Shown here: one piece after another, positions 40,692 through 57,558 of the stretch
Layout of the letters: each line of letters opens with the position of its first letter
How positions within the stretch are numbered: the stretch's first letter is position 1
NCBI GenBank assembly: GCA_947595215.1
Contig: CANQEO010000002.1
Coordinates: 3,253 to 67,252 of the forward strand
Length of the DNA stretch: 64,000 nt
Source: an uncultured Bacilli bacterium
GTDB taxonomy: Bacteria > Bacillota_I > Bacilli_A > RFN20 > CAG-449
Direction of reading: 5' to 3'
The notes under the pieces: generated by a model
What the model was told of the DNA's origin: nothing
Databases searched by the model: none
The model's input: only the letters and a program-made list of their open reading frames with translations
Program-made: the position numbers and the translations under genes

Positions 40692-40776
40692 TGGTGGGGA
40701 TAATGGGAGTCGAACCCATACGCAGTTAAGCACTAGAACCTGAATCTAGCGTGTCTACCAATTTCACCATATCCCC
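40692..40776 (-). tRNA. tRNA-Leu (anticodon CAG), type II long variable arm, CCA encoded
   Basis: Hand-folded: acceptor GGGGATA/TATCCCC, anticodon stem CTAGA/TCTAG with loop TTCAGGT, T-arm ATGGG-TTCGACT-CCCAT. 85 nt. Confidence 0.9.
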
Positions 40777-40803
40777 AAAATCACCATCTAATCTAAATGG
40801 TAA

Positions 40804-41259
40804 TTAATAATTCTTTTTATTTTCAATCGCTTTATATTCTTCAAAAAGATTTAAACATTGTTTACGATCTAACTCAAGAATAAATTCTTTTTTCTTTTCA
40901 TCAGTCATCTCATAAAACACTTTATCTCGAAAACCGATATCTTCGGTATCAACGATATTACAACCAAAGTAGACTTTAGCAATATTGGCCCAAAGAATGG
41001 CACCCAAACACATTGGGCATGGTTCTGCAGTTGTATATAATTCACAACCACTCAAATCAAAAGTTCCTAACTTTTTAGAAGCTTTACGAATCGCCATCAT
41101 TTCTCCATGGCAAGTAGCATCACGATTTTTAATAACTTCATTATGTCCTTTAGCAACGATTACACCATCTTTTACAATCACTGCTCCAAATGGACCACCA
41201 TGACCATTATGAATTCCTTTTTTTGCTTCATTGATGGCCGCTCTCATATATTTATTCAT
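40804..41259 (-). CDS. guaD: guanine deaminase-type CDA-fold deaminase (GuaD-like)
   Basis: 151 aa. GGPFGAVIVKDG, zinc motifs HGEMMAI and PCPMCLGA, C-terminal ..NKKNY. Aligns closely by eye along its length with B. subtilis GuaD rather than TadA. Confidence 0.7.
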   Translation of the reverse strand: MNKYMRAAINEAKKGIHNGHGGPFGAVIVKDGVIVAKGHNEVIKNRDATCHGEMMAIRKASKKLGTFDLSGCELYTTAEPCPMCLGAILWANIAKVYFGCNIVDTEDIGFRDKVFYEMTDEKKKEFILELDRKQCLNLFEEYKAIENKKNY

Positions 41260-41284
41260 GACAATCCTCCTATTAATTATTTTA

Positions 41285-42373
41285 CTAAACTTTTCTATCT
41301 AATAAAACTTTTACATAGTCTTTACTCTTAGTCTCTTTCAGCTTAATTAGATTATTTTCTGTTGCGATATTTTCTATGGCTTTTAAAACTTTAGTCAAAT
41401 CTTCACGCGATTTAATTTCAATACGATTGACATTTGATTCGTTTTTGATACCATCTTTCAATACATAACGCATTTTTAAAAGTCGATCTTTTATTTCTAA
41501 ACTGACAAGAAGTTTGTCTTCGTATTTAAAGTTGTCATTATAGAAATTTACTATGTTATGCATTTTAGCATAATTCATTAATGCATTTTTTAAGTGATTA
41601 TAGCAGTACTTTAGTTCCATAGGAGTTTGCCTTAATTCTTCAACAAAAGAAGTTTCTCTAATCACTAGTTTAACCACTTTGCAAAGCGTGGCTTTTCTAA
41701 TCGTCGGTTTTAATTTTTCCATCTCAAGTTCAAATAATGGTTCTTCATCTACAACACTTTCTTCACTTTCAGTCTTTTCTTTAGTGTCATTTTCAAGTAA
41801 AACATCTTCGACAAACTCTTCGACAATTGGATTATCTTCGCATATACCAATTATTTTAACAGTTGATTCTCTATTTGTATCAGTACATTCATCACTGCGA
41901 TCTGCAAGTTCTGAAGTAAAGGTTTTATTCTTATAGATTCCCTGTGCAAGATTAAATAATAAAATAAGGAACAAAAAAGAAAGAATCATTGCTGCGAAAA
42001 GGGTATATACTTGAACAGGTTCAATTCTTAATTTATTGCCAATTTGATTACGATAATGGTAACTAATAAGTGGTAATATTATCACAAACGGAAGATAAAT
42101 TTGACATAAGTAACTGGAAAAGCCTTTATGTTTACGAAGATTATTTACAAGCCAAGAAATTTCAAAGATTAGAAGAGTCAATAAAAGCACTAAAATACAC
42201 GCAACTTTCCAATCTACCATTCTTTCAGAAAAATTAAAAAACTTTTTTATAAACTCCCATATTTCAACAAACATATTTGGTCCCACAATTTGGTTTAATA
42301 TAACGATGACAGTTATAAAAGACATCAATATTAATATAGAAACCATAAAATAAATATTTTTTCTTGTTTTCAT
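41285..42373 (-). CDS. hypothetical membrane protein (4 TM + acidic linker + soluble C-terminal domain)
   Basis: 362 aa. No recognisable motif. 25-nt gap to guaD. Confidence 0.4.
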   Translation of the reverse strand: MKTRKNIYFMVSILILMSFITVIVILNQIVGPNMFVEIWEFIKKFFNFSERMVDWKVACILVLLLTLLIFEISWLVNNLRKHKGFSSYLCQIYLPFVIILPLISYHYRNQIGNKLRIEPVQVYTLFAAMILSFLFLILLFNLAQGIYKNKTFTSELADRSDECTDTNRESTVKIIGICEDNPIVEEFVEDVLLENDTKEKTESEESVVDEEPLFELEMEKLKPTIRKATLCKVVKLVIRETSFVEELRQTPMELKYCYNHLKNALMNYAKMHNIVNFYNDNFKYEDKLLVSLEIKDRLLKMRYVLKDGIKNESNVNRIEIKSREDLTKVLKAIENIATENNLIKLKETKSKDYVKVLLDRKV

Positions 42374-42454
42374 GGTTTACCCCTTTCGAATTAACATAAA
42401 AATTATACTACACATATAATGAAATTGCTATTTTAAAAAATAGATGTTCTCTAA

Positions 42455-42487
42455 ATTAAAAAACGTTACTCATCAATAGTAACGTTT
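42455..42487 (-). terminator. rho-independent terminator after tRNA-Ala
   Basis: Minus strand: AAACGTTACT-n7-AGTAACGTTT followed by TTTTAATTT. Confidence 0.7.
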
Positions 42488-42499
42488 ATTTATCGCTTT

Positions 42500-42575
42500 T
42501 GGTGGAGCTGACGAGGATCGAACTCGCTACCTCCTCCATGCCATGGAGGCGCTCTCCCAGGTGAGCTACAGCCCC
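42500..42575 (-). tRNA. tRNA-Ala (anticodon GGC), CCA encoded
   Basis: Hand-folded: acceptor GGGGCTG/CAGCTCC with the G3:U70 Ala identity pair, anticodon stem CCTCC/GGAGG with loop ATGGCAT, T-arm GCGAG-TTCGATC-CTCGT. 76 nt. Confidence 0.9.
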
Positions 42576-42588
42576 AACTGCGAGATAA

Positions 42589-42617
42589 ATTATATATAGA
42601 ATGAAATAATTAGTCAA
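42589..42617 (-). promoter_or_regulatory. sigma-A promoter of tRNA-Ala
   Basis: Minus strand: TTGACT (42617-12), 17 nt, TATAAT (42594-89). The tRNA 5' end lies 14 nt downstream. Confidence 0.65.
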
Positions 42618-42649
42618 GGATAAATTATTCCTATGGAAAATTTATCAAA

Positions 42650-42838
42650 AAAAGAAAAGCCATACTCGCTCATGTCTTTCGATAGAATGTTAGTGTTGCT
42701 GTTAGAGTGGGTAATATTCTATCTAGCGATCATCCCAGAATCGCAACAATGTCCCCGTACGAATGCTTACGTATATGGCCATTCCGCCTAATAAAATTAG
42801 GCAATATCATTGTTTAATATTTTTATGTAACTGTAAAT
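42650..42838 (-). ncRNA. candidate small structured RNA (unclassified)
   Basis: Promoter TTGACA-16 nt-TACAAT (42872-42845) points into a G+C-richer ~130-nt segment. The segment has several 6-8-bp complementary pairs (GCCATA/TATGGC ends; GATAGAAT/ATTCTATC; TGTTGC/GCAACA) and ends in TTTTCTTTTTTT (42658-42647). No known RNA family recognised. Confidence 0.25.
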
Positions 42839-43576
42839 AAAATCATTGTAACTAATTAGTAGAATTTGTCAACCATTGTTAATTTATGTTGTTTTTTGTC
42901 TGGTTGACAACAAAAAATTATTCCATTATTATAGTCTCTTCTATTTAAGTACATATTCTTCGTTTCTAAATATACTTTTCTAATTTCATTCTACAAATTA
43001 TTCTTTTTCAACCTATCTACTTTTTTGTTAATCCTTGTGAATTTGGTCCAATATTCCAAAACCATCTATCAAAAAACGATACTTTTTTTCATGAATTAAC
43101 CTATACCAAGTTCAATTTGAATCTTTGTGGACTATTGCCAAATCAATACTGAAGCCGGTCTTTGTTGGCATTGATTCTAAAGATGAACCTAAATGCAAAT
43201 CCCCCCTGCAGGGTATGATTTTCATTTATAGTAGTTGATTTCCTTAATAAAATTATACAACTTAAAAAATAATGCTGCAAAATTTCTTAAAGAAATTTCA
43301 TATAAAAAGTCTTCTAATCACCACTTACTTAATCTTTCTTACATCGCCTATTGGATAGCAATAAGGCTACTTGTTTCAATCATTTTTTTCTATTTACTCT
43401 TTACATTTAAATTTGTTTATATTGCAATTTAAAAGGCATTTTTGAGTTATAGAGTGTTATTTTTTGATAGTTATTACTCTTTAAAAACACCTAGACATTG
43501 GGTATCAACCCTATAAAAAACAGACTGACACTATTGCAAATTAGTTTGCATTGGTATCAATCCGATTCTTTCAACA

Positions 43577-43655
43577 TGGTCGGGACGACGCGATTCGAAC
43601 GCGCGACCTCTAGTTCCCGAAACTAGCGCACTAAACCAAACTGTGCTACGTCCCG
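43577..43655 (-). tRNA. tRNA-Pro (anticodon CGG), CCA encoded
   Basis: Hand-folded: acceptor CGGGACG/CGTCCCG, anticodon stem CTAGT/ACTAG with loop TTCGGGA, T-arm GCGCG-TTCGAAT-CGCGT. 79 nt. Begins 13 nt after the polC stop. Confidence 0.85.
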
Positions 43656-50285: not shown

Positions 50286-51236
50286 CTATGACACAAATGG
50301 AAAATTAATGATGGTGAGTAATACTAACGTCACTGCTAAACAAGTAACAAGAACTGAATCAAAGCGATCTAAAACTCCACCATGTCCTGGGAATAAATTT
50401 CCGAAATCTTTGATATTGAAATGGCGTTTAATAGCAGAAAACATAAAATCTCCAAGAACTGAAATAATAGCAACTACTATAGATACCAACAAAATCCAAT
50501 ACCAGTGCTCAAGATCTAAAACACCCTTTAATATCGGAGCGTCTAAAATATCACAAATCACAGCAAAACCAAAACTCATCAAAGTCGAGAAAATTACACC
50601 ACCGACAAATCCTTCCCAAGTTTTTTTAGGAGATATCCGCGGATTCATTTTGTGTTTTCCGAGTAAGATACCTGTCGCATAAGCACCTGCATCACAAAGC
50701 AAAGCCCCACCAACTACATATACAAATAAAAGACATGATAAATATTTACTTTGATATATATAACCAGTTAATGCAACAGGACAATATCTAATAAAATATA
50801 CCGATTGAACTCCAACACCTATTAATAACGACATTGTAGCAACATAACAAACTTCATTTATTCCAAAACTTTCATAAGATAATGATAAAAGGAAAAGACC
50901 TCCGATTAAAACTGCAAATCCAATAGTCGAAACTCTCATATCAGTCATATAAAACATATTGTCTTTAATCCAAGCCATTTCGCTGTTTTTTACAAACACC
51001 CAATATATGAAAGAGACGCACATTATAAGCGCAAAGATCTTTACGATAATATTAATTTTCGGATTTTGTGGAGCTTTTAAAAATTCATAAATGGCAATAA
51101 TAGCTACCAACATTACAACAATAAAGAAAAACCAATCACCAATAATTATCGTTGGAACCCCTACCGCTAAAAGTGCTATCGCAGTTATGACTCTTGTAGC
51201 AAAAGACTTTCTAGTATCTTCACTGATTTTATTCAT
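50286..51236 (-). CDS. cdsA: phosphatidate cytidylyltransferase
   Basis: 316 aa. Multi-TM. C-terminal signature SAIKRHFNIKDFGNLFPGHGGVLDRFDS. Confidence 0.93.
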   Translation of the reverse strand: MNKISEDTRKSFATRVITAIALLAVGVPTIIIGDWFFFIVVMLVAIIAIYEFLKAPQNPKINIIVKIFALIMCVSFIYWVFVKNSEMAWIKDNMFYMTDMRVSTIGFAVLIGGLFLLSLSYESFGINEVCYVATMSLLIGVGVQSVYFIRYCPVALTGYIYQSKYLSCLLFVYVVGGALLCDAGAYATGILLGKHKMNPRISPKKTWEGFVGGVIFSTLMSFGFAVICDILDAPILKGVLDLEHWYWILLVSIVVAIISVLGDFMFSAIKRHFNIKDFGNLFPGHGGVLDRFDSVLVTCLAVTLVLLTIINFPFVS

Positions 51237-51982
51237 CCTTTGATACCTCCATATCGACGATCACGTTTTGAAAATTCTTCTAATACAGAAATAAATTGTT
51301 CTTTTTTGAAATCTGGCCAAAGATCTTTTATAAAAACAAACTCTGCGTAAGCAGCTTCATAAAGCATAAAGTTTGAGATACGTTGTTCTCCTGATGTACG
51401 AACCAAGACATCAATTGGTGGTAAAAAATGAGATTCCATTGATTCTTCAAAGGTTTCTTTATTAATATCTGAAAGCGAGAGGACTCCCTTTTTCACTTTT
51501 GCCGCTAATTCGATGGCGGCACGAACAATCTCATCTTGTCCACCATAATTTAAGCAAACATTTAAAACTAATCCATCATTGTCTTTTGTGATTTCTTTAG
51601 CTCTAGCAATCGCTTTTTGAGTTGATTCAGGAAGACGTGTCAAATCGCCCAAAGTAACGATTTTTGCATGATGTTCATTTAATTCATCTATATCATGCTT
51701 AAAGAAATCTTCAAGTAGATTAAAAAGGTAGTCAATTTCTTTTTTGTCACGTTTCCAGTTTTCTGTTGAAAAACAAAATAATGACATTACTTTTATATTA
51801 TAGTCTTCACATAAAAATGCAGTTTCTTTAATTCTTTTGCAACCTTCGCGATGTCCTAAAGAACGTGGCAACATTCTTTTTTTAGCCCATCTACCATTAC
51901 CATCCATGATAAAAGCAATATGGTTAATAGGCTTGTAGCTAGTGATAATTTTTTCTTTATTTTTACGTTTGAAGAGCGACAT
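51233..51982 (-). CDS. uppS: undecaprenyl-diphosphate synthase (cis-isoprenyl transferase)
   Basis: 249 aa. IAFIMDGNGRWA, FSTENWKR, RTSGEQRISNF. Confidence 0.95.
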   Translation of the reverse strand: MSLFKRKNKEKIITSYKPINHIAFIMDGNGRWAKKRMLPRSLGHREGCKRIKETAFLCEDYNIKVMSLFCFSTENWKRDKKEIDYLFNLLEDFFKHDIDELNEHHAKIVTLGDLTRLPESTQKAIARAKEITKDNDGLVLNVCLNYGGQDEIVRAAIELAAKVKKGVLSLSDINKETFEESMESHFLPPIDVLVRTSGEQRISNFMLYEAAYAEFVFIKDLWPDFKKEQFISVLEEFSKRDRRYGGIKG

Positions 51983-52263
51983 TTTCGAGGCCTCCTCTTT
52001 TCAATAATTATACATGATGTAAATCAAATATAAAAATATATTTTTATATTTTTGTTTAGAATATATAAAAATATACCTCATTATGCTCGTTAAGATTTAT
52101 AAATATGGTATTTAATTGTATTATTTTAAATGACAAAGAAACATTTTTAATCTATATCTATAAATTGTTTTAAGTTAAATCATTCATAAAAGAAGTCAAA
52201 TATAATCACAATTACCTATAAATATTAAGTAATTAATGTTATAATGGATTTAGGTGATAAAAA

Positions 52264-52806
52264 ATGCAAAAACCCAAATTAAAATTTTTAAAAAATAAAA
52301 CCATTCACATAGGTTATATCGGTTTTAATTCTTGCGATGAAATGAAAAATAATTTGCTAATACATCCATTATTTGAAAATCAAAAATTTAAGGTTTTTGA
52401 AGAACAAGAATTAACGGGATTATTACACAAATTAAAAGATGATCAATATGATTACATCATAATCCCCTCAAAAAATAAAAGAAATGAAATAAATGATATG
52501 TTCTTATCTCTGATATCAAGATTAGATATTGAGCAAATTAACGAAATAGGAATGTTAATATGCGATATAAATTACTATGATAGCGCTTCGACTTATGATG
52601 AAACTTCTACCATTAAAGAAAAACCTATCGATAGTTTTAAAGGCAAAAAGCGAATTAGAACTTATCACATTTCTAAAGACGCAAGCGAAAATAAGCAAAT
52701 TGAATCAATAGAGTATCGTATATTTAAAAGAAACGAATACAAAACAAACATCTTCACTCGCTTCGGAATTTGGTTATTAAAAAGAATGGTATTAAGAGGT
52801 TTTTAG
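52264..52806 (+). CDS. compact prephenate-dehydratase-like (PBP-fold) domain protein, probably truncated by a frameshift
   Basis: 180 aa. AGGTGA SD and a TGtTATAAT-like box upstream. IGYIGFNSCDEM, DYIIIPSKNKRNEI and NIFTRF align by eye with the PDT motifs GPxGTFS, DygvvPiENS and NxTRF. Adding one A to the A5 run at 52779-52783 fuses it in frame to the next ORF. Confidence 0.45.
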   Translation: MQKPKLKFLKNKTIHIGYIGFNSCDEMKNNLLIHPLFENQKFKVFEEQELTGLLHKLKDDQYDYIIIPSKNKRNEINDMFLSLISRLDIEQINEIGMLICDINYYDSASTYDETSTIKEKPIDSFKGKKRIRTYHISKDASENKQIESIEYRIFKRNEYKTNIFTRFGIWLLKRMVLRGF

Positions 52807-53039
52807 AAATAGCGTCAACATTGCTTGTTGTTGTATTATTTGGATTTTTAATTTTCCGTTTAGTACCTCAATTTGAAGAAATAATAGGCGATCTTAGTAC
52901 TTGGGTTGAATTAGTTGCTACCTCACTAATTATTCTCTTTCAAATCATATTAAAAATTGCAAACACCGAAGAAGTCATCAAAAGAAAATTACTTGTCGGT
53001 TATTGGATTTATTATTCTTTAGAGGAAGTGGATGGCTAA
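52770..53039 (+). CDS. two-TM segment ORF (likely a continuation of 52264-52806)
   Basis: 89 aa. TTG start with no SD and no internal Met. Helices FLEIASTLLVVVLFGFLIF and WVELVATSLIILFQIIL. Confidence 0.35.
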   Translation: MVIKKNGIKRFLEIASTLLVVVLFGFLIFRLVPQFEEIIGDLSTWVELVATSLIILFQIILKIANTEEVIKRKLLVGYWIYYSLEEVDG

Positions 53040-53457
53040 AGGCCATTTTGTTCCAAAAGGTTTTCACACTCGTCTAGTTGAAATCAGTAATCGTGGTGGT
53101 AATCTCTCATTTAAATGTAAATTTGCAGGAGAGGATCAAATCTTCTTTGCAACGGATACCTTAACTTTTGATTATGAACTTTCTTCACAGATTGGAAGAG
53201 GTTTTTATTATTATACTTCCAATATTCTTAATAACGATGTTCGTAGAGCCGAAGGAACTTGCCGTTTCGAAGGTGAAACAGTTAAAAGTAATCAAATTAT
53301 GACAATGAATGGTTGGTTCTTCAGTCGTGGTACTGCGCTAAAAGGAAGAGTTAGATATTTTAGAATAAGTAAAAAAGATTATTATCAATTACAACATTCT
53401 TTAACTTTCTATCGCTTAGGCAATCAAAAGGATACTAGTTGGTGTTTATGGATGTGA
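53032..53457 (+). CDS. beta-strand-rich soluble domain protein, unknown family
   Basis: 141 aa. ATG overlaps the upstream stop (ATGGCTAA). GAGGAAG SD. Short alternating segments LSFKCKF, LTFDYEL, GFYYYTS, GTCRFEG, GRVRYFRI. Confidence 0.45.
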   Translation: MAKGHFVPKGFHTRLVEISNRGGNLSFKCKFAGEDQIFFATDTLTFDYELSSQIGRGFYYYTSNILNNDVRRAEGTCRFEGETVKSNQIMTMNGWFFSRGTALKGRVRYFRISKKDYYQLQHSLTFYRLGNQKDTSWCLWM

Positions 53458-54009
53458 AGCTTCAAATACTGATGTAGCCGCAAAAAATGAAGAAATGCGC
53501 AAAAAAATATCAAAGGATGTATCTAAAGAAAATATTCACTTTAACATTGATTATGCATATTTTACGATATTGAAAGTTTAAAAAAAGCCTTATTAAATCA
53601 TTTAATTGATTATATTATTCCTAGTTCTAATCGAGGGAAAACAATAGCAAAATATGATATTTTTAGAACTGGAGAATTTGAAGTAATTTACTCTAAAGGT
53701 ATGGAAATACATTATTGTTTAGGGACTACCAATGCAAATTTAATAATTAATGATGAAACAAAATTCTATGGTCATATTCAATCATATGAACAATGTCGCA
53801 CTTTCATAGGAGAACACGAATTCATTGAAGAATCATCTTCTTCACGTGCAGCGATTAATATGTCTAAAGGTTTTTACAGCAACAATTCTGTCATTATTTG
53901 CAATAAAGTTGCTATTGATAGATATCATTTAGTATGTTTAAAAGATAGCGAAGGAAAATTAATAAATCCATATTTAGATCAAGAAAAAACATTACAATTT
54001 TTAATATAA
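53420..54009 (+). pseudogene. second PDT-like domain gene, lacking a start codon and frameshifted at a T4 run
   Basis: Frame 2 (53420-53578) gives ..ILVGVYGCEASNTDVAAKNEE..NIDYAYF. Frame 1 (53551-54009, which includes track ORF 53701-54009) gives ..YDIESLKKALLNHLIDYIIPSSNRGKTI..KFYGHIQSYEQCRTFIGEH..SSSSRAAINM... The join lies at the T-run 53560-53563. Colinear by eye with B. subtilis PheA residues 1-190. No ACT domain; TRF replaced by LQF. Confidence 0.5.
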
Positions 54010-54042
54010 TTAGATTAAAAAGAGATTACTCTTTATAAAAAT

Positions 54043-54075
54043 AAAATGCTCTAGCCACAAAGCAGAGCATTTTTA
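54043..54075. terminator. bidirectional terminator between the insert and frr
   Basis: A-run, ATGCTCT-n11-AGAGCAT, T-run. Sits between convergent genes. Confidence 0.65.
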
Positions 54076-54076
54076 A

Positions 54077-54628
54077 TTAAATCGTCATAATATCTTTTTC
54101 TTTTTCAGCGTATTCAGAATCAATCTTTTTGACAAATTCATCAGTGATTTTTTGAACTTCATCTTCCAAAGATTTTCTTAAATCTTCCGGGAGTTCTTTA
54201 TCTTTTTTCAATTCATCATTTTGATCTCTTCTTATATTGCGTATAGCAACTTTAGCATCTTCCGCATATCTTTTTGCAGTCTTAGCTAAATCGCGACGTC
54301 TATCTTCAGTAAGTGCTGGAATAACAAGACGAATAGTGTTTCCATCATTAATAGGATTAATTCCTAAATCAGAACCATTGATAGCTCCAATAATCAATTT
54401 TAATGTTTCTTTGTCATATGGTTTTATCAAAAGTTGACGTGGTTCTGGAACAGAAATTGAAGCTAATTGATTAATTGGTGTCATCGAGCCATAGTAATCA
54501 ATTTCAATGCGATCTAATAGCGACGGAGAAACCCGACCTGTACGCAAAGTATTGAAGTTGTTTTTTAGAGATTCAATGCTTTTTTGCATCTTTTCTCTAG
54601 TTTCATCAATAATAATTTCTTCTATCAT
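54077..54628 (-). CDS. frr: ribosome recycling factor
   Basis: 183 aa. Full-length RRF-like sequence (..LRTGRVSPSLLD..IRNIRRD..). Confidence 0.97.
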   Translation of the reverse strand: MIEEIIIDETREKMQKSIESLKNNFNTLRTGRVSPSLLDRIEIDYYGSMTPINQLASISVPEPRQLLIKPYDKETLKLIIGAINGSDLGINPINDGNTIRLVIPALTEDRRRDLAKTAKRYAEDAKVAIRNIRRDQNDELKKDKELPEDLRKSLEDEVQKITDEFVKKIDSEYAEKEKDIMTI

Positions 54629-56277: not shown

Positions 56278-57381
56278 TTATTCCTCATCAACTTTTTCAG
56301 CTTTTGGAGCTTCTTCTACTTTAGCTTTTGGAGCTCTTTTAGCCTTTGGTGCTTTTTCTTCTTTGACTTTTTCTTCGACTGGTTTTTCTTCAGCCTTTAC
56401 TTCTTCAACTTTCTCTTCAGCAACTGGTTTAACAGCTTTTTCGACTGGCTTACGGAAGGTTTTACGTGGATTCTTTTTCTTTCCTTGTTGAGCATCTTCT
56501 CTAGCTTTTTGACGAATTTGTTTCATTTCTTCAGCGTGATCAGCTTGTTCTAAAGCTTCAACCATAGAAACTTCATCTTCCGGATTGACATTGTAAGCAG
56601 TCATGGTTTGTCCACCCTTAGCTTCAACAACTGCATCAGCCATTAAACCGACAATTAATCTAACTGCGCGAACAGCATCATCATTTGATGGAATGACATA
56701 GTCAACCATATCCGGATCACAGTTAGTATCGACGATACCAAACACTGGAATTCTTAATTTACGAGCTTCGCTAACAGCGTTATGTTCAATACGTGGATCG
56801 ACAACGAATAAAGCATTTGGAACTTTTCTCATCGATTTGATACCATCGAGATTCTTTAACAATTTATCTTTTTCTTTTCTTAATAATGCAGCTTCTTTCT
56901 TTGAAAGTACATCGTAAGAGCCATCTTCTTCCATAGCTTCTAACTTATTAAGATATTTAATTCTTTTTTGAATGGTTTTGAAGTTAGTTAAAGTACCGCC
57001 TAACCATCTGGTAACAACGTAGAAAGAACCAGAACGTAAAGCTTCTTCTTGGACGATTTCTTGACATTGTTTTTTGGTACCGACAAATAAAACTTTACCG
57101 CCTTCAAGAACTATTTTCTTTAAAGCAATATAAGCTTCTTGAATTTTTTGAGCACTCTTTACTAAATCGATAATATGAATGCCGTTTTTATTTCCGTAGA
57201 TATATTTTCCCATTTTCGGATTCCATCTACGAGTTTGGTGTCCGAAATGCACGCCTGCTTCAAGCAAGGCTTTGGTGGAAACGATAGCGTCATCTTCACT
57301 GTGGACGACAGTTTCCATGATGTTGTCGGCTTCAACGTTTTCAATGTTTTCTTCGACTAAAACTTTTTCTTCTTGACTCAT
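56278..57381 (-). CDS. rpsB: 30S ribosomal protein S2 with acidic N-terminal and Lys/Glu/Ala/Pro-rich C-terminal extensions
   Basis: [19 protein letters not shown] core. AAAGGAGG 8 nt before the ATG at 57381 (MSQEEKV). The upstream part of the 417-aa track ORF has no start signal. Confidence 0.93.
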
Positions 57382-57558
57382 TTTTAAGTCCTCCTTTTGT
57401 TTTTTGCCTCTTTCACTTCTAACAACTACCCCAAGAATTTTTATTCTCAGACTCGGCGGTTGAATCCATGAAATGCGATGTCTCTCTTTCAAGAGCCAAT
57501 TAATTCTATCATAAAGGACTATGCTTAACAATATTTTTTTGTGCTTAAAGCACTATTT

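Follow-up and report, generated by a model that had tools for sequence, protein, structure and literature searches.

In the window analysed here, a stretch of 64,000 nucleotides from an uncultured Bacilli bacterium (GenBank assembly GCA_947595215.1, contig CANQEO010000002.1, positions 3,253 to 67,252 of the forward strand), the core genes frr and uppS are separated by an insert that carries plus-strand coding. The uppS start (51982) and the frr stop (54077) lie 2,094 bp apart, and the gap holds four plus-strand open reading frames (ORFs) at 52264-52806, 52770-53039, 53032-53457 and 53701-54009. An interpretation made earlier from the letters alone (the sequence-only reading) had reported this separation and these ORFs, and both proved correct. 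It had also described the insert as the sole plus-strand coding in a minus-strand block; this block extends over about 23 kb, as the other plus-strand ORFs of at least 120 amino acids (aa) in 40.8-63.9 kb are all antisense within minus-strand genes. Comparison with intact homologues shows that the four ORFs derive from a single gene, 52264-54038, which five frameshifts have broken up. From the N to the C terminus, the gene product is composed of a degenerate prephenate dehydratase (PDT)-like domain of the periplasmic-binding-protein type II (PBP-II) fold, a hairpin of two transmembrane (TM) helices, an 8-stranded barrel with a helix, and a PDT-like domain without an ACT domain. We hold this anatomy and the pseudogene status, taken together, with high confidence.

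An accessory gene between frr and uppS

In relatives with frr at least 90% identical at the protein level, frr and uppS are adjacent, with a gene-free spacer of 361-474 bp and no insert, a comparison that the sequence-only reading had suggested. The relatives compared were the metagenome-assembled genomes (MAGs) GCA_947588815.1 and GCA_947627505.1, at a DNA identity of about 76-81%. Homology with the relatives ends at the frr stop codon and restarts at 52055, in the conserved uppS promoter region. The insert has a G+C content (GC) of 28.4% versus 32.0 ± 2.5% for the window, which places it in the lowest tenth of same-sized windows. Around it we found no terminal inverted or direct repeats and no target duplications, only AT-rich chance matches, and a search of the rest of the window gave no second copy of the gene. 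The insert is lineage-specific, a single horizontally acquired accessory gene in one lineage of uncultured low-GC gut Bacilli. The features of the locus are the following.

51233-51982, minus strand: uppS, 249 aa, left flank of the insert (ORF, and a Prenyltransf Pfam match on the identical gene in locus L024)
51983-52055, minus strand: upstream region of uppS, common to relatives without the insert (blastn homology with loci L026 and L030 resumes at 52055)
52056-52263, plus strand: AT-rich, insert-specific leader of the insert gene, without homology to the relatives' spacers
52237-52245, plus strand: extended -10 element TGtTATAAT, a putative promoter element read from the sequence
52252-52257, plus strand: Shine-Dalgarno (SD) element AGGTGA preceding the ATG of the insert gene, read from the sequence
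52264-52782, plus strand: fragment 1 (frame 1), degenerate N-terminal PDT-like domain and pre-membrane helix (tblastn to P0001-P0003; hhalign)
52779-52783, plus strand: frameshift 1, A6 to A5, one A lost where homologues read W-L-L-K-K/N-N (sequence against alignment; tblastn)
52784-53033, plus strand: fragment 2 (frame 0), 2-TM hairpin and first barrel strand GYWIYYSLEE (tblastn; AlphaFold2 (AF2) helices)
about 52809-52856 and 52902-52952, plus strand: TM segments within fragment 2 (tblastn; AF2)
53034-53035, plus strand: frameshift 2, one G gained, yielding ATGGCTAA (against the homologue motif EET-D-A/S-K/N)
53036-53433, plus strand: fragment 3 (frame 1), the remaining 8-stranded beta-barrel and its C-terminal helix (alignments; AF2; Foldseek)
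53431-53435, plus strand: frameshift 3, frame 1 to 2, +1 or -2 nucleotides (nt), in the barrel-PDT linker (translation; tblastn)
53435-53563, plus strand: fragment 4 (frame 2), start of the C-terminal PDT-like domain, LVGVYGCEASNTD... (three-frame translation; alignment)
53561-53566, plus strand: frameshift 4, 1 nt lost, frame 2 to 1, inside the PDT-like domain (sequence; tblastn)
53566-53988, plus strand: fragment 5 (frame 1), bulk of the C-terminal PDT-like domain (PF00800; PDB profile; Foldseek)
53984-53989, plus strand: frameshift 5, A7 to A6, one A lost (repair restores the invariant N579)
53991-54038, plus strand: fragment 6 (frame 0), C-terminal tail ITIFNIIRLKRDYSL and stop, the true gene end (matches 'NITTFCVYTLKRDE' of P0003)
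54043-54073, both strands: hairpin, probable bidirectional intrinsic terminator common to the convergent insert gene and frr
54077-54628, minus strand: frr, 183 aa, right flank of the insert (ORF and RRF Pfam match)

Both strands of the hairpin at 54043-54073 form a stable fold (-15.8 and -18.8 kcal/mol, z -5.4 and -4.2, equalled by none of 200 shuffles), in agreement with the bidirectional terminator that had been proposed for the end of the insert. Since A and T runs border the hairpin, a shared bidirectional terminator is plausible. A consensus terminator scan missed it, probably owing to its long loop. The promoter scan gave no excess over shuffles, and for this reason the promoter listed above is a putative one; consensus scans for promoters and terminators are uninformative in the AT-rich DNA of this region.

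Pseudogene status of the window copy

Intact homologues aligned by tblastn run collinearly through window frames 1/0/1/2/1, and a conserved-looking peptide passes from frame to frame in the three-frame translation of the insert. The frame-joined product of 584 aa has 11 intact matches of 562-613 aa, the best at E 3e-201, with identities of 33-56%, and its coverage in these matches is 94-98% (at least 97% in ten). Among 78 columns invariant in the 11 intact homologues, the repaired copy breaks a single one (N579), which is recovered once the fifth frameshift is also repaired. Furthermore, the correctly framed fragments contain no in-frame nonsense mutations and no missense changes at conserved sites. 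With 77 and then 78 of the 78 invariant columns kept, either the inactivation is recent or the lineage is prone to indels.

The fifth frameshift had been left out of the sequence-only reading, and the replacement of TRF by LQF reported there is an artefact of it. The repair turns '...EKTLQFLI*' into '...EKNITIFNIIRLKRDYSL*', moves the stop to 54036-54038 and brings back the N-x-T-x-F motif of the family; the first residue of the restored N-I-T-I-F falls across the repaired A run, immediately before fragment 6. The idea of a working module fails for the window copy, as it is a pseudogene with five frameshifts.

Sequencing or assembly errors could also produce such a pattern, as could TGA read as Trp (genetic code 4), and the gene would then be intact in the organism. 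Two of the five shifts do fall in error-prone A5/A6 homopolymers. However, the region is 100% identical in contigs of ENA ERZ27060145 and Logan ERR10663692, which are independent assemblies made from different samples by different pipelines, and it is on the strength of this identity that we regard the pseudogene as real. Gene callers cut the copy on those contigs into the same 180-, 89-, 141- and 102-aa pieces, and an identical frr was found on nine contigs, seven of them with mostly the same neighbouring proteins. We noticed no further broken gene in the window, where every core gene examined is uninterrupted, including the 1,426-aa polC, and TGA is an ordinary stop in this genome, ending 4 of 20 long ORFs. 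When code 4 was tried, the readthrough in frame 1 was unrelated to the homologues, and the conserved sequence was given by frame 2. An intact gene hidden by errors or by an altered code is, on this evidence, extremely improbable.

A functional gene fission, with the N-domain, 2TM, barrel and PDT pieces translated apart and then assembled, would have in its favour that all invariant residues are kept, that the promoter-like and SD elements are intact, and that the gained G of frameshift 2 makes a coupled stop/start for the 141-aa ORF. On the contrary, the breaks cut folded units, leaving barrel strand 1 and strands 2-8 on separate ORFs and the PDT domain cut twice; the stretch 53435-53563 has no start codon; and the gene is one uninterrupted ORF at 14 of 14 other loci. 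We therefore consider fission very unlikely. In the overlap itself (53032-53039), the stop of the 89-aa TM ORF overlaps the ATG of the 141-aa barrel ORF, an arrangement that mimics translational coupling.

Independent pseudogenisation was observed in another member of the family: P0181 (276 aa) and P0183 (243 aa) are the halves of a frameshifted orthologue of P0008 on one 6,180-bp contig. In addition, P0023 and P0027 carry pieces of a P0006-like gene behind the in-frame N termini of unrelated ORFs, which resemble a glycosyltransferase and RuvC, and are either remnants or chimeric assemblies.

Domain anatomy and kinship of the intact family

Uninterrupted ORFs of 561-613 aa occur at 14 loci in other genomes and metagenomes, including uncultured Bacilli, a 'Coprobacillus' MAG, rabbit, pika and horse gut samples, and one complete 1.06-Mb chromosome. 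Homologues are thus found as intact genes and not only as decayed fragments, the latter being an outcome that the sequence-only reading had allowed for. Pairwise dN/dS values of 0.055-0.13 among the intact orthologues indicate strong purifying selection, and the gene is evidently functional elsewhere.

The C-terminal ~195 aa (repaired domain) match PF00800 with 48.6 bits against a cut-off of 25.2 (E 1e-12); the same Pfam domain is carried by 11 of 11 homologues, and the PDB profile matches are 4lub at 1e-11 and 2qmx at 2.5e-10. The AF2 model of the whole protein (pLDDT 75.6) has prephenate dehydratases as its best PDB folds by Foldseek, followed by LysR/PBP-II domains. Pfam gave no ACT match for the C-terminal domain, and the protein stops 8-17 residues past the T-x-F motif, so that the description of this part as PDT-like without ACT stands. 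Its pocket retains the N of ENS, H, QC, S and T-x-F, the last visible in the window copy only after the repair of frameshift 5. ENS has become x-N-R/K-G, with only the N invariant, and TRF has become T-T/K/S/A-F, with loss of the R.

The N-terminal ~160 aa have no Pfam and no PDB sequence match. Between the first lobes of this and of the C-terminal domain, hhalign finds an alignment of 66 columns (probability 94.8%, E 5e-8), and the N-domain aligns with the PDT domain of relatives of ~410 aa at E 1.9e-4 (hhalign), which supports the first ORF as a diverged PDT-like half. The match of NIFTRF to TRF proposed previously was wrong, as NIFTRF appears to sit in the helix ahead of the membrane segment. 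Judged by its position, the invariant 'IEYRIFK' would take the place of the last PDT strand in the N-domain; it matches 'TEFRLFK' of the 410-aa relatives and the TRF of the enzymes.

The two TM helices span residues 175-199 and 211-233 in the whole-protein model, and their outer flanks are K/R-rich and their connecting loop is acidic; by the positive-inside rule, all soluble parts are predicted to be cytoplasmic. Residues ~246-387 form eight strands and a C-terminal helix, and this barrel is the most conserved part of the family (mean column identity 62-69%). AF2 thus gives two helices and eight strands where a hairpin followed by a beta-rich domain had been recognised by eye. Since Foldseek with the whole model returned only PDT/PBP-II matches, the 2TM+barrel was modelled separately, with P0001 as the first alignment row (pLDDT 76.9; helices H16-40 and H43-73). 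When the ORFs were scanned one by one against Pfam and PADLOC, the N-domain, the TM piece and the barrel had no significant match, and sequence-profile searches of the PDB, run with the barrel and with the N-domain, yielded no meaningful match either.

The family is small. A barrel profile search of 1.84 billion representative proteins returned 46 proteins, each a cluster; a word-indexed search with the barrel profile of a distant clade returned only 4, and only 2 loci of the gene were found in JGI metagenomes. Three forms make up this superfamily: a double-PDT form of 556-615 aa, a PDT-2TM-barrel form of ~410 aa with PDT Pfam E-values of 1e-32 to 1e-41, and a 2TM+barrel alone of ~210 aa. The PDT-like, 2TM and beta-rich parts are therefore joined in one protein in other genomes, a co-occurrence that had been put forward as a check. 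Because the barrel also occurs without PDT, the 2TM+barrel is regarded as the core module and the PDT domains as add-ons.

The sequence-only reading had likened this core to Cap15 and the S-2TMbeta class of effectors. In BFVD, a database of predicted viral structures, the sole significant Foldseek match of the 2TM+barrel (E 2.5e-5; next match E 0.017) is A0A8S5RNF0, named 'SMODS-associating 2TM beta-strand rich effector domain-containing protein'. The alignment is near full length, with 239 columns versus a target of 220 aa, and has template-modelling scores (TM-scores) of 0.46/0.48. Decoy-tested hidden Markov models (HMMs) show a weak but collinear sequence similarity, with scores higher than those of every reversed and almost every shuffled decoy in both directions. 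With an OptE-clade barrel HMM, the best of 35 family barrels scored 18.6 bits, versus maxima of 8.3 in 1,050 shuffles and 4.9 in 35 reversed sequences, and real sequences made up 12 of the top 15 matches. In the reciprocal test, the top 15 matches were all real (16.9 bits versus 5.9 and 1.4 for the decoys) and always fell in the same register, in the C-terminal half of the barrel. P0039 reached E 4.6e-4 when the full-length HMM was run on a database of 770 sequences.

Several results speak against this kinship. The S-2TMbeta sequences of the decoy tests are closely related to one another, so their matches are not independent, and the TM-scores in BFVD are only about 0.47. PF18153, the S-2TMbeta family, was unmatched at E up to 10 in the window product, in 36 superfamily members and in 6 that were re-scanned; PADLOC-DB 2.0 gave no significant match for the window pieces and 10 superfamily members. 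An hhalign comparison with 116 OptE-clade proteins was not significant (E 0.07, probability 0.8%), its alignment being collinear from TM1 to the last strand, and a comparison with VnOptE alone was likewise not significant; the VnOptE sequence was taken from Supplementary Table 4 of PMC12657218, and its homologues all belong to PF18153. The top 50 PDB matches of the 2TM+barrel do not include the Cap15 structures 7N34 and 7N35; the best matches are weak 8-stranded lipocalin-like barrels (E 5.5e-4, TM-score about 0.4).

The likeness to Cap15/S-2TMbeta thus finds support in the BFVD match and the decoy-tested HMMs and none in PF18153, PADLOC, the OptE hhalign comparison or the Cap15 crystal structures. 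At the least, the 2TM+barrel has the same architecture as S-2TMbeta, and we think it probable that it is a divergent branch of that superfamily. Two further matches fall below significance: that of the PADLOC 2TM 'Effector' model to the window TM piece (E 0.027), and those of SLATT_4 and SLATT_5, which are SMODS/SLOG-associating 2TM effectors, to the TM region of one or two members (E 0.014-0.14).

Genomic neighbourhoods and possible function

At every locus the gene stands by itself between intergenic flanks of its own, and its place differs from lineage to lineage. Synteny with frr and uppS was sought in the homologue loci and not found, so the family is not tied to this junction. In 16 loci examined there is no cyclase (CD-NTase/SMODS or mCpol), no aromatic-pathway gene and no conserved partner, and a PADLOC census of 123 neighbour ORFs showed no cyclase among the 25 most frequent families listed. 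The lack of a cyclase partner in the window, as described from the letters alone, is a trait seen across these loci, and a restriction of the homologues to an aromatic amino-acid context, which had also been contemplated, is not observed, as no aro or phe genes lie nearby.

Defence, toxin-antitoxin or mobile-element genes lie beside or near the gene at several loci. One locus adjoins Cas9-Cas1-Cas2-Csn2, and another lies among HipA, SLFN/AlbA, TacA-GNAT and HNH genes. On the complete 1.06-Mb chromosome OX437086.1 (L011 3139-7673), an AbiL-like pair (AAA_21 and RloB; PADLOC AbiLi E 4e-78) and a Schlafen-group-3 helicase lie 2-7 kb upstream. The stand-alone 209-aa 2TM+barrel P0049, from a high-GC organism (L035 1-9046), directly follows a tyrosine integrase, DUF3987 and an AlpA-like excisionase; at this locus, a 1,218-aa AAA_23/SMC_N protein is encoded further upstream, and a doubtful 138-aa ORF overlaps the P0049 stop codon. 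Additionally, the gene lies at most 4 kb from a contig end in 10 of 10 draft genome contigs (L001-L010) and in the pika-gut contig (L037), even on contigs of 100-889 kb, whereas the contig of P0034 is too short for context. This position suggests that assemblies break in strain-variable DNA beside the gene.

Comparison with characterised effectors indicates how the intact protein might work. In Cap15 and OptE, barrel-mediated oligomerisation of a 2-TM protein collapses the inner membrane, and the barrel is controlled by a cyclic nucleotide that a partner cyclase makes; a ligand bound in the barrel turns Cap15 on and OptE off (PMC10419184, PMC12657218, PMC12657230). Like Cap15/S-2TMbeta, the insert family has two N-terminal TM helices directly before a compact 8-stranded cytoplasmic beta-barrel, in a core module of ~200 aa that in its superfamily is also found alone; it differs in having no PF18153 match and no adjacent CD-NTase, and in a barrel that is embedded between PDT-like domains in one polypeptide. 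The same 2TM+barrel layout is found in OptE/2TMbeta, the mCpol partner in Panoptes. However, OptE works with a separate minimal cyclase and binds 2',3'-c-di-AMP, while the insert family has no partner gene. OptE shows that a ligand present at all times can keep such effectors inactive (PMC12657218, PMC12657230), and by analogy this logic could apply to a fused domain that binds or produces a metabolite. A ligand-binding domain fused to a TM hairpin is shared with Cap14 (2TM-SAVED), Cap16 (2TM-NUDIX) and 2TM-CARF proteins, which kill by oligomerisation (PMC10419184, PMC12657218); their sensors, in contrast, bind nucleotide second messengers from a partner enzyme. In the literature searched, we found no paper linking prephenate dehydratase domains to anti-phage systems or 2TM effectors, and no description of a PBP-II/PDT sensor for 2-TM effectors.

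According to the mechanism that we propose, a small carboxylate resembling prephenate or phenylpyruvate would be the ligand, or perhaps the substrate, of the PDT-like clamshell domains, whose ligand state would gate the oligomerisation of the barrel. Once the barrels oligomerise, the TM hairpins would break the integrity of the membrane, on the model of Cap15 and OptE. The protein would be a self-contained sensor-effector, most likely a conflict or abortive-infection gene, and, being costly, such a gene would often be lost, as in the window copy. Recurrent inactivation and variable, sometimes defence-linked neighbourhoods fit a costly conflict gene.

Some observations count against a role in defence. 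The PDT pocket motifs are largely kept, and because of this the C-terminal domain could simply be an enzyme. Most contexts are housekeeping (mraZ, NUDIX/M20, CBAH/FeoB, clpP/MoxR, gal/LacI, and smpB/Big_2 at another), with defence, toxin-antitoxin or mobile-element genes in only about 4 of 14 distinct contexts. Searches of IMG/VR, INPHARED phages and PLSDB plasmids revealed no relatives.

The enzymatic alternative takes the intact protein as a membrane-tethered metabolic enzyme, a prephenate/arogenate or related decarboxylating dehydratase in which a lipocalin-like barrel replaces ACT, and the window copy as a decayed pheA-like gene. The likeness to the PDT of PheA (2qmx, 6vh5, 4lub) is substantial: the C-terminal domain passes the Pfam threshold, its best PDB folds are true prephenate dehydratases, its pocket positions are kept down to the Thr of TRF, the ~410-aa relatives match PDT strongly, and selection is strongly purifying. 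There are also differences. ACT is missing, other residues stand in place of the E and S in ENS and the R in TRF, and the protein is membrane-anchored, with a second, degenerate PDT-like domain at its N terminus. The most conserved part is the barrel and not the PDT domain, the 2TM-barrel core occurs without any PDT domain and structurally matches an S-2TMbeta effector, the distribution is patchy with a location that differs per lineage, and the 16 contexts lie outside aromatic amino-acid biosynthesis. We consider an enzyme of this kind unlikely.

The intact protein might also be a non-lethal, membrane-anchored sensor or modulator of small molecules (sensing or quenching of aromatic or acyl signals, or ligand-controlled permeability) with no role in phage defence. 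Ligand binding is a generic property of PBP-II and lipocalin-like folds, PADLOC gives no match, and most neighbourhoods are housekeeping. GqqA, a PDT-like quorum-quenching protein (7am0), is among the top fold matches and shows a PDT fold in a role other than phenylalanine biosynthesis; the comparison covered the shared fold, and its solved chains (273-278 aa) have no membrane anchor or barrel. A sensor would nevertheless be left without an output domain (DNA-binding, kinase or transporter) and without a conserved partner gene. Moreover, a conflict gene would better account for the likeness of the 2TM+barrel to killing effectors, for the repeated pseudogenisation and for the four contexts in which CRISPR-Cas, AbiL, toxin-antitoxin or integrase genes are neighbours. 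A sensor without a lethal output thus also seems improbable.

Between these alternatives and the proposed mechanism, we infer an S-2TMbeta-like effector that carries PDT/PBP-II domains instead of a nucleotide cyclase, of which the window holds only a recent pseudogene. By analogy with the characterised effectors, a ligand-gated membrane-disrupting or defence function of the intact family is a serious possibility, which we rate at somewhat less than an even chance. The whole statement, that the window holds an inactivated, horizontally acquired gene whose intact relatives are ligand-gated membrane effectors, may in our judgement equally prove right or wrong. A more specific version is doubtful: the protein might be a nucleotide-free abortive-infection module on a single polypeptide, in which the PDT domain monitors, makes or consumes a metabolite of the aromatic pathway and so gates an S-2TMbeta-type barrel. 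It is just as tentative that such a module would be the metabolite-gated counterpart of the cyclic oligonucleotide-based anti-phage signalling system CBASS (Cap15) or of the inverse-signalling Panoptes (OptE), one protein both handling the signal and acting as the effector.

If the proposed mechanism is true, S-2TMbeta-type membrane effectors are not bound to nucleotide second messengers and could be wired, in one polypeptide, to a fold of primary metabolism (PDT/PBP-II), which would widen the known range of signals read by bacterial suicide effectors. It would also add a compact candidate defence gene of ~1.7 kb from poorly studied gut Bacilli with reduced genomes. Two of the three domain kinds of the family have no Pfam model, so current pipelines label the family 'PDT' only and would mistake it for pheA. 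The window locus itself should be annotated as a recent pseudogene in an otherwise conserved core operon, and neither as four genes nor as a prephenate dehydratase.

Three other features of the window are recorded here. A perfect 13+13-nt AT-only palindrome, AAATATAAAAATA|TATTTTTATATTT, lies at 52026-52051, just upstream of the uppS promoter; it is kept in the insert-free relatives L026 and L030 and may be an operator or part of a terminator. Ribosomal protein S2 (56278-57531, minus strand) is unusually long, with 367 aa called and 378-382 aa in relatives. The called product begins with an acidic extension of ~35 aa and ends in a low-complexity tail of ~90 aa that is rich in K, E, A and P. Upstream of polC, three single tRNA genes (Leu-CAG, Ala-GGC and Pro-CGG) are located among protein genes at 40692-43655 on the minus strand, and the best partners of their anticodons are codons that end in G or C, the GC of the genome being 32%.

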